Below are positions 9,840 to 10,142 of a DNA stretch of 64,000 bases, piece by piece; position 1 is the stretch's first letter, and the number at the start of each line of letters is the position of its first letter. The translations under genes and the position numbers were made by a program. Below the pieces are notes generated by a model. The model was not told the origin of the DNA and did no database searches. It saw only the letters and a program-made list of their open reading frames with translations. This DNA comes from Escherichia phage Mizar: sequence record PV714129.1; one strand, given 5' to 3'.

Positions 9840-9882
9840 TTTATACCTTGTTGGGGTTTCCACCTACTAGGTAAGTGTTTGT

Positions 9883-9974
9883 ACGAAACGCCGGGATTTG
9901 AACCCGGTTATTAAGTAGTTGACGCTACTCAATATTTTTAAAAGGCCATATCTCGACCATATCCGAACGTTCCG
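9883..9974 (-). ncRNA. tRNA-like element or small stable RNA (perfect T-arm, no canonical cloverleaf)
   Basis: Minus strand CCGGG-TTCAAAT-CCCGG T-arm at 9891..9907 with possible acceptor pairing CGGAACG/CGTTTCG, but the D and anticodon arms do not fold canonically. Confidence 0.25.
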
Positions 9975-10142
9975 TCAAAAACGCTACTCGGCTTATGGCA
10001 AAGATATTTCCTCGAATCGATAATTCTGTGCGCCGTTTCTGCTGTGATGTAAGGGGATATTAACGAATCATAAAGATTTATTAAGACCAGTCCTTACTCA
10101 GGGAACATCAGTCCGACGACTTGCCGGTAGCGACCCGGCTTC

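Follow-up and report, generated by a model that had tools for sequence, protein, structure and literature searches.

Predicted orthologues of the T4 stable RNAs rnaD and rnaC at the end of the tRNA cluster of Escherichia phage Mizar

Identity and layout of the locus

The locus analysed is a non-coding stretch of Escherichia phage Mizar (PV714129.1), situated at 10146..9883(-) of a window of 64,000 nucleotides (nt), this window being the whole stretch of DNA that was analysed. All genes around the region lie on the minus strand. Judged by sequence comparison, the stretch almost certainly carries, as regards identity and architecture, the orthologue of rnaD (species 2 RNA, band D) of phage T4, followed by that of rnaC (species 1 RNA, band C). 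Both are small stable RNAs of T4 that have been known since the 1970s. The complete explanation considered best, namely that the two orthologues close the transcription unit of the transfer RNA (tRNA) genes, with a trailer hairpin and an intrinsic terminator downstream of them, is very probable. The locus is real, correctly read and already known, and it is ordinary in a T4-like genome.

Pairwise alignment of window positions 10150..9805(-) with the T4 genome (NC_000866) yielded 87% identity to rnaD and rnaC (~300 nt), and BLAST against the T4 record X03016 yielded 91.4% identity over 99% of the query, the match falling on the features 'species 1 RNA' and 'species 2 RNA'. When phage genomes were searched by BLAST, 800-805 records were matched, nearly all of them from enterobacterial Tevenvirinae, with the Mosigvirus (RB69-like) phage 55 as the top match (98.7%); carefully annotated matches (RB3, RB59, RB68, GiZh and Kha5h) carry the label rnaC | rnaD. 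Window and T4 have a common gene order (tRNA-Arg, rnaD, rnaC, terminator) at the 3' end of the tRNA cluster, and all helices of rnaC and rnaD are shared by both. In T4, tRNA-Arg abuts rnaD with a gap of 1 nt, whereas in the window an open reading frame (ORF) of 114 amino acids (aa) is inserted between the two, which is also present in RB69 (as ORF150c) and in phage BW-1 and is missing from T4. Further differences concern the T-loop of rnaC (UUCAAAU in the window, UUCGAAU in T4), the terminator stem, which has a UU/UU mismatch unlike that of T4, and the 3' end of rnaD, which reads CACAG in the window and CACCA in T4. The ends of both RNAs in the window (Table 1) were projected from the T4 features in X03016 and NC_000866. 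Folding of a 338-nt stretch spanning the region gave z = -6.24, with none of 100 shuffled sequences being equally stable.

A preliminary description of positions 9840-10142 had interpreted the region as a single structured element of about 300 nt with a perfect T-arm but no canonical tRNA, representing an RNA analogous to T4 rnaC and rnaD, a degenerate tRNA or a tRNA that had been missed. Two RNA genes of ~121 and ~137 nt are found here instead, and their relation to the T4 RNAs is one of direct orthology, beyond analogy (87% pairwise and 91% BLAST identity, same order and position), so that the first suggestion is borne out in a stronger form than stated. Both hairpins that had been singled out are present, CCGGG-TTCAAAT-CCCGG as the T-arm of rnaC and GCCGG-GTCGCTA-CCGGC as the first hairpin of rnaD, and the two flanking ORFs (10143..10487 and 9141..9767, both on the minus strand) indeed enclose no ORF of at least 60 aa, but only three of 25-34 aa. 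The absence of a canonical tRNA was confirmed: ARAGORN detected only tRNA-Arg, tRNA-Asn and tRNA-Met upstream and no tRNA gene in 9800..10150, and the Rfam tRNA model (RF00005) had no match in the region, whether at its gathering score or at E <= 10. The T-arm is part of rnaC, a tRNA-like RNA that has neither a D-arm nor an anticodon arm and is thus neither a plain decayed tRNA nor a tRNA overlooked by hand. The Rfam scan proposed at the time was run, and no family came at or near its gathering score in the region; a permissive scan of 9700..10250 against Rfam 15 gave best scores of 12.8-19.6 bits, compared with thresholds of 39-70, mostly on the terminator hairpin. Covariation with related phages was likewise examined, and the structure proved strongly conserved in rnaC and rnaD.

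Table 1. Predicted features of the rnaD/rnaC locus and neighbouring genes (window coordinates)
Feature	Position	Strand	Remarks
rnaD	~10146..10026	-	Alignment to T4 rnaD and X03016 'species 2 RNA'
rnaD hairpin P1, GCCGG-GUCGCUA-CCGGC	10139..10123	-	Second hairpin of the preliminary description
rnaD main helix	10120..10028	-	GUCGUCG (10120..10114) with CGGCG(C)AC (10035..10028), nearly invariant
rnaD apical hairpin	within 10040-10107	-	Homologous to site of BW-1 nucleotide change
rnaC	10019..9883	-	137 nt, C1 to discriminator-like U; alignment to T4 rnaC, ends per X03016 'species 1 RNA'
rnaC acceptor-like stem, 5' strand CGAUUCG	10019..10013	-	Pairs with 9890..9884, 7 bp
rnaC junction stem, 3 bp	AGG 10012..10010 with CCU ~9945..9943	-	Closes long arm
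rnaC long arm, ~60-70 nt	10007..9948	-	Replaces D-arm; tip loop UUGACG 9978..9973
rnaC hairpin P3, 10 bp	9934..9909	-	Replaces anticodon arm; 6-nt loop CGUCAA 9924..9919
rnaC T-arm CCGGG-UUCAAAU-CCCGG	9907..9891	-	Directly abuts 3' acceptor strand as in tRNA
rnaC acceptor-like stem, 3' strand CGUUUCG	9890..9884	-	Then U (9883) and ACA (9882..9880) at discriminator and CCA position of a tRNA
Trailer hairpin CACUUACC-UAG-UAGGUG	9876..9860	-	Between rnaC and terminator
Intrinsic terminator GCCCCUUCC-GAAA-GGUUGGGGC	stem 9839..9818, A-U extension to 9842..9815; U6 9817..9812	-	
tRNA-Arg(UCU)	10581..10506	-	ARAGORN and Rfam; last tRNA of cluster, upstream of both RNAs
114-aa ORF, phrog_3355	10487..10143	-	Between tRNA-Arg and rnaD
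208-aa ORF, phrog_2280	9767..9141	-	No Pfam match

Structure of rnaC

According to the comparative analysis, rnaC is predicted to be a tRNA mimic with a cloverleaf-like fold, yet no canonical tRNA. The homologue set comprised 25 distinct sequences from Tequatrovirus, Mosigvirus, Karamvirus, Moonvirus, Kagamiyamavirus, Kanagawavirus, Gelderlandvirus and Marfavirus as well as from uncultivated contigs, and all counts given below for rnaC refer to this set. RNAalifold independently yielded a four-helix junction (cloverleaf) for these homologues. In the resulting structure, 94.7% of the cells were paired, compared with 37-43% when the partners were slid by 1-3 columns, and double-sided (compensatory) changes were found at 27 of the 52 pairs, as against 5-10 in the slid controls. 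When the rnaC sequence of the window was folded alone, its minimum free energy structure was the comparative structure (-50.5 kcal/mol, z = -5.43), and the same cloverleaf was obtained as the single-sequence fold of seven out of nine other homologues. The covariance model for rnaC (R1) matched at 9879..10021(-) with 157.8 bits (E 6e-37); its only other match in the window was a weak one to tRNA-Asn, and phage tRNA-Asn genes score 16-22 bits.

In the acceptor-like stem, five Watson-Crick pairs were kept in 100% of the sequences, the third pair being A-U in 11 (T4/RB69 group) and G-C in 14 of them. The two central positions are U.U in every homologue, while the neighbouring pair alternates between A-U and G-C; from this alignment, the U.U mismatches look selected rather than merely tolerated. 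The 5' acceptor strand of most rnaC clades, CGGUUCGA, repeats the T-loop sequence GGUUCGA. Changes on both sides affected 15 of the 23 pairs in the helices of the long arm, whose tip stem varies by clade (CGUUU/GAACG, GUGU/ACGC, GCAU/AUGC or CACGU/ACGUG) around a loop that stays constant. Compensatory changes were likewise present at nine of the ten pairs of the P3 stem, and the third pair of the T-stem was G-C in 11, U-A in 13 and U.G in one of the sequences. A first fold made by hand, with CGGAACG (9974..9968) as the 5' acceptor strand, was rejected: it showed no compensatory change and was broken in 12 of the 25 sequences, and the segment belongs to a co-varying hairpin.

A candidate kissing loop in rnaC

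The tip loop of the long arm and the loop of P3 are exact reverse complements over 6 nt, and the corresponding loop-loop helix pairs at six out of six positions in all rnaC sequences. In 21 sequences both loops stay unchanged, although the stems that carry them differ wholly between clades; in the four sequences from Klebsiella phages (Marfavirus), UUGGCG faces CGCCAA, which amounts to a double change from A-U to G-C. Because the loops are complementary and co-vary, they were proposed to form an intramolecular kissing loop, and such a contact is likely. Its covariation is suggestive, short of conclusive, because the co-change represents a single evolutionary event. In a simple model, the helix lengths would fit an intramolecular contact, with ~20 bp leading outward (basal long arm) and ~22 bp leading back (6 in the tip stem, 6 in the kiss and 10 in P3).

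As in the kissing complexes of ColE1 RNA I/RNA II, HIV-1 TAR/TAR* and DIS, two hairpin loops with full Watson-Crick complementarity over 6 nt would meet in rnaC. In contrast to those complexes, both loops are located in one molecule, inside a tRNA-like four-way junction, and the contact is predicted from sequence.

Comparison of rnaC with tRNA and tRNA-like RNAs

Like a canonical tRNA, rnaC has a 7-bp acceptor stem that is continuous with a 5-bp T-stem, a 7-nt T-loop of the consensus UUCRANY, a four-helix junction and a single base at the discriminator position. Unlike a canonical tRNA, it lacks both a D-arm and an anticodon arm of the usual 5-bp stem and 7-nt loop, measures 137 nt, contains two invariant U.U mismatches in its acceptor stem and escapes both tRNA finders and the Rfam tRNA model; in addition, CCA is not encoded in the window. 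The acceptor stem is followed by U-ACA in the window and by U-CCA at the same position in the Marfavirus clade. In phages EcS1, EnA02 and Melville, rnaC is flanked on each side by a tRNA gene at a distance of 6-12 nt and therefore occupies a 'tRNA slot'.

The species 1 RNA annotated in X03016 begins at the first base pair of the acceptor stem and ends at the discriminator U, with a length of 137 nt. In work from the 1970s-80s, species 1 RNA is described as being cleaved by RNase P and receiving an added CCA. The mature RNA was reported to be 140 nt long, which would fit 137 encoded nt followed by an added CCA. rnaC is probably processed like a tRNA, a view favoured by its place in tRNA slots, by the ends of species 1 RNA in X03016, by the U-CCA of the Marfavirus clade and by the weak R1 matches to tRNA-Asn genes. 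In such a pathway, rnaD and rnaC would be co-transcribed with the tRNAs and excised in the same way as these. RNase P would cut 5' of C10019, guided by the minihelix of acceptor stem and T-arm, and would thereby free the 3' side of rnaD, too; the 3' trailer of rnaC would be trimmed to U9883, after which CCA would be added and tRNA-like stability would follow. The kissing loop would hold the two arms not found in tRNA side by side as a rigid body.

Transfer-messenger RNA (tmRNA, SsrA) undergoes tRNA-like processing, and it resembles rnaC, by way of analogy, in that a minihelix of acceptor stem and T-arm is placed on a larger stable RNA without an anticodon arm. It differs from rnaC, which has no mRNA-like reading frame or tag, no series of pseudoknots and no sequence similarity to tmRNA, and in which G3.U70 is not conserved, the third acceptor pair being A-U or G-C. 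A search for tmRNA with ARAGORN was negative, and no match to the Rfam tmRNA models was obtained in the region. YrlA (a bacterial Y-RNA-like RNA), the MALAT1 mascRNA and the TMERs of MHV68 are also non-coding RNAs with a tRNA-like module that is seen by tRNA enzymes, and the likeness of rnaC to them is a functional analogy only; unlike these RNAs, rnaC has no Ro-binding helix and no detected homology to them, and its tRNA-like part takes in both termini of the molecule. On the T-arm, Rfam gave a single signal, a match to mascRNA below threshold (14.7 bits, E 4.6).

Structure of rnaD

rnaD is not tRNA-like, and its 5' end, which overlaps the TAA stop codon (10145..10143) of the 114-aa ORF, is single-stranded. 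All five pairs of hairpin P1 showed compensatory changes and were paired in 100% of a wider set of homologues; the loop of P1 is unconserved in distant homologues. The main helix encloses conserved internal loops and motifs (GACUGA, GUUCCCUG, CACAGC and GAAAC) together with a variable apical hairpin. Among 18 close homologues analysed by RNAalifold and pair counts, pairing amounted to 96.8%, with eight pairs changed on both sides. An alignment of 17 sequences that included distant homologues gave 94.0% pairing and double-sided changes at 15 of 24 pairs. Slid controls for the two sets gave 30-50% pairing. The second alignment was fitted to the covariance model R2, with which its distant members had been found, and is thus biased towards that model. 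R2 matched the window rnaD with 157.3 bits at 10019..10153(-), and rnaD folded alone gave z = -2.6. The 3' end is uncertain, the sequence encoded by T4 ending in ...GCGCACCA and that of the window in ...GCGCACAG.

Several further readings were considered and discarded. The succession CUGAUG...GAAAC prompted a reading of rnaD as a hammerhead or kink-turn, but on inspection the motif forms a two-helix junction without stem I or a cleavage site and has U or G in the place of A9; the GA dinucleotides are wrongly placed for a kink-turn, and no Rfam match was obtained. Antisense action of rnaD via GUUCCCUGA was rejected as well, with 13 complementary sites in the window compared with 9.8 expected and the gene itself as the sole exact match. 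Weak Rfam matches to snoRNA ceN54, asX2, Yfr10, Thr-leader and CopA were far below threshold and located mostly on the terminator hairpin; they were treated as chance.

Trailer hairpin and terminator

The trailer hairpin downstream of rnaC is kept in T4 with a compensatory change (CACUUGCC..GGCAGGUG), and trailer and terminator together folded with z = -3.56. From its sequence, the hairpin with the adjoining U6 at 9842..9812 is taken to be the terminator of the tRNA/stable-RNA transcription unit. It was missed by a scan for consensus terminators because of the UU/UU internal mismatch; the homologous hairpin of T4 is labelled 'pot. terminator' in X03016. The preliminary description had let its region end in an intrinsic terminator, which does exist, but lies mostly outside the interval 9840-10142, at 9812..9842, just past the start of that interval.

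Distribution and modularity

rnaC and rnaD travel separately as self-contained modules. Phages of the genus Dhakavirus have rnaD only, located after tRNA-Arg and followed directly by the trailer hairpin that follows rnaC in T4, and are without rnaC. In Karam-, Moon- and Marfavirus phages, the array of tRNA genes contains rnaC, and rnaD, in a divergent form, is found elsewhere. Where tRNAs are annotated, this divergent rnaD directly follows tRNA-Asn, as in Klebsiella phage Marfa (segment 611-767) and Enterobacter phage EnA02 (67-181), with R2 scores of 30-45 bits. The copy in Marfa has an insertion of ~50 nt in its first hairpin and is annotated as a coding sequence (CDS). An rnaD-like element scoring 103 bits with R2 is found right after tRNA-Met in the Vequintavirinae phage vB_EcoM-LTH01 (segment 1494-1609). 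As rnaC and rnaD occur apart and at different places, they are modules independent of the flanking ORFs.

In a search for a cellular origin, BLAST returned no match to rnaC or rnaD in 5,426 complete E. coli genomes, and no exact-pattern match for either RNA was found in 185,579 species genomes. A loose loop-anchored pattern for distant homologues hit at least 120 loci, mostly by chance, and the model had no match in the 20 of them that were searched. A metagenome scan gave only one further real sequence, and a 3'-anchored scan returned only Marfa again.

Alternative readings of the locus

It is very unlikely that the element matters chiefly as DNA, with the T-arm sequence GGTTCAAATCC serving as the target of a SegB-type homing endonuclease or as a recombination hotspot and the RNA being a by-product. 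The SegB protein of T4 has GGTTCRANTCC, located in the 3' parts of tRNA genes, as its recognition sequence (PMC2330249), and rnaC of the window carries this motif; an endonuclease-like ORF occupies the segB slot of the window, and a deletion junction in the Mosigvirus AV115 falls exactly into the T-loop sequences of tRNA-Asn and rnaC. A DNA target covers 11 bp, however, and does not account for ~260 nt of RNA structure that are conserved and co-vary, loops distant from the motif among them; it would be an added property of any gene bearing a T-arm and constitutes no alternative function. GGTTCRANTCC occurs three times in the window, compared with 0.2 copies expected, namely in tRNA-Asn, in rnaC and in one chance match. 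The latter, the third copy of GGTTCAAATCC at 36841..36851(-), lies antisense in a 611-aa ORF (35923-37758(+)), is stemless and was rejected as a tRNA-like element.

The AV115 locus (OR352945, segment 1451-1545) was compared with window positions 11290-11470(-) and 9860-9925(-). It is a chimera whose 5' part comes from tRNA-Asn and whose 3' end comes from rnaC, the joint lying within the T-loop sequence GGTTCGAATCC that both genes share. Through this fusion ~1.4 kb are lost, comprising the 3' end of tRNA-Asn, the endonuclease-like ORF, tRNA-Arg, the 114-aa ORF, rnaD and most of rnaC. In the record the chimera is still named 'tRNA-Asn', despite acceptor strands that have ceased to match. The deletion may be the repair product of a SegB-type cut, because SegB has been reported to cut GGTTCRANTCC, with tRNA-Asn as the preferred site (PMC2330249). 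The endonuclease-like ORF of the window (223 aa, 10567-11238(-)) is situated between tRNA-Asn and tRNA-Arg, which is the segB slot of T4, and has weak matches to the homing-endonuclease-type NUMOD3, DUF559 and phrog_9084; as listed by the ORF finder, it overlaps tRNA-Arg by 15 nt (10567-10581).

A highly improbable alternative holds that the region is a mere structured 3' untranslated region with a terminator, or a cis-acting leader of the late gene at 9141..9767, and contains no separate functional RNAs. Its position between two ORFs with a terminator at the end, directly followed by the late-promoter-like sequence TATAAATA at 9810..9803, would agree with this idea. Against it stand the occurrence of rnaC alone between tRNA genes and of rnaD alone after tRNA-Arg (Dhakavirus), tRNA-Asn (Marfa and EnA02) or tRNA-Met (Vequintavirinae), and the accumulation of both in T4 as discrete stable RNAs. 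Moreover, the late promoter is located downstream of the terminator, and the RNAs are therefore not part of the leader of the late gene.

There is scarcely any likelihood that the T-arm marks a real, unusual tRNA gene, for instance a 94-nt 'tRNA-Lys' at 9975..9882(-) with an acceptor stem formed by CGGAACG (9974..9968) and CGUUUCG (9890..9884) and with a long variable arm. In its favour, phage G4500 and Escherichia phage 55 have a tRNA-Lys annotated over the stretch, both the window and T4 allow the alternative 7-bp stem, with G.U as its third pair, and the linker contains a CUUUUAA string. ARAGORN and the Rfam tRNA model were negative, even at E <= 10, and the alternative stem showed zero compensatory changes and was broken at pair 3 in 12, at pair 4 in eight and at pair 7 in four of the 25 homologues, its CGGAACG strand being the 3' strand of a co-varying hairpin stem. 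The 'anticodon' string CUUUUAA has no flanking stem and is missing outside the T4/RB69 group, and the species 1 RNA of T4 begins ~46 nt upstream of the alternative stem.

The chance that the region encodes small proteins is negligible: short ORFs exist (34 aa at 9919..10023(+), 28 aa at 9777..9863(-) and 25 aa at 9793..9870(+)) and in many related records between one and three CDS are annotated here as 'hypothetical protein', but substitutions follow the pattern of RNA helices (27 pairs with pair-preserving double changes). The ORFs are tiny, are spread over both strands and do not figure among the features of the curated T4, RB3 and RB59 records, and the RB69 reference has no annotation here.

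Public annotation of the locus is uneven, with a blank RB69 reference at segment positions 7992-8420, part of rnaC called a 94-nt 'tRNA-Lys' in phage G4500 and, at segment positions 2686-2779, in phage 55, and hypothetical CDS put over rnaD/rnaC in dozens of records. The locus should be annotated as rnaD/rnaC, replacing the 'hypothetical protein' or 'tRNA-Lys' of many records.

Several points weigh against the interpretation as orthologues of rnaD and rnaC that are processed like tRNAs and braced by a kissing loop. All support at the RNA level comes from T4, the RNAs of the window being predicted from their sequence. RNase P cleavage, CCA addition and the length of 140 nt would follow from the work of the 1970s-80s and from the feature ends in X03016. 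The kissing loop is backed by one compensatory event in one clade, and an intermolecular (dimer) contact would produce an identical covariation signal. The rnaD of the window is not adjacent to a tRNA, overlaps the stop codon of an ORF with its 5' end and is without the CCA encoded at the end of T4 rnaD, and phage targets complementary to its motif GUUCCCUGA occur in the window at chance level. Finally, the natural Mosigvirus AV115 is without both RNAs, and rnaC and rnaD are therefore dispensable at least on the host of AV115.

Expression and possible roles

In T4, eight tRNAs and the RNAs of species I and II derive from one primary transcript of ~1.75 kb, whose end lies downstream of the species I gene (PMC2330249). 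RNAC and RNAD of T4 are classed as late RNAs and were shown by RNA-seq and validated by Northern blot (PMC9697503). The function of rnaC and rnaD is stated as unknown (PMC3014915, PMC9697503, PMC12685909); it has remained unsolved for ~50 years, and this is where the residual interest of the locus lies. Three features worked out here were not found described in the accessible literature, namely a cloverleaf whose U.U pairs are invariant, a kissing loop that co-varies and mobility among tRNA slots; older literature may contain them.

All lines of the T4-like phage BW-1 that were evolved on E. coli ECOR34 acquired a convergent single-nucleotide polymorphism (SNP) in rnaD (PMC12685909). This SNP (OR125554 nt 164264; segment position 365) maps to nt 76 of rnaD and is an A->G change on the RNA strand. 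It converts CACAG-UUUUA-CUAUG into CACAG-UUUUA-CUGUG, a sequence already present in relatives, so that a C.A mismatch in the apical hairpin becomes a C-G pair. The orientation and order of rnaC and rnaD are given in reverse in PMC12685909.

As to function, rnaC could be imagined, speculatively, as a stable tRNA decoy or adaptor for a tRNA-binding factor of the host or the phage, a role that must be rated as tentative and rather unlikely. rnaD might act via its invariant single-stranded core (GACUGA, GUUCCCUG, CACAGC and GAAAC), and both RNAs might tune fitness on particular hosts while being non-essential. An even bolder idea, which is improbable, is that rnaC represents an uncatalogued class of tRNA mimics, composed of a U.U minihelix and a kissing-loop rigid body and moving among the tRNA slots of enterobacterial T4-like phages, and that it would engage, together with rnaD, a tRNA-binding enzyme of the host or a tRNA-targeting defence as a host-range or anti-defence factor. 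If this were true, the adaptive, pair-restoring rnaD SNP from ECOR34 would offer a first indication of it. No binding partner emerged from the computations made here. The comparative models offer handles for experiments, including exact ends, a tRNA-like handle with U.U, the kissing loop, the rnaD core and natural deletion and adaptive-SNP variants, and they would permit an Rfam family to be built.

The downstream late gene

The T4 late-promoter consensus TATAAATA is located at 9810..9803(-), 2 nt past the U-tract of the terminator and upstream of the 208-aa ORF. The N-terminus of the encoded protein, MYTFNEFLAE, presumably resembles the capsid-targeting sequence of the T4 internal proteins. 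In the whole window, TATAAATA is over-represented, with 18 copies compared with 7.7 expected.

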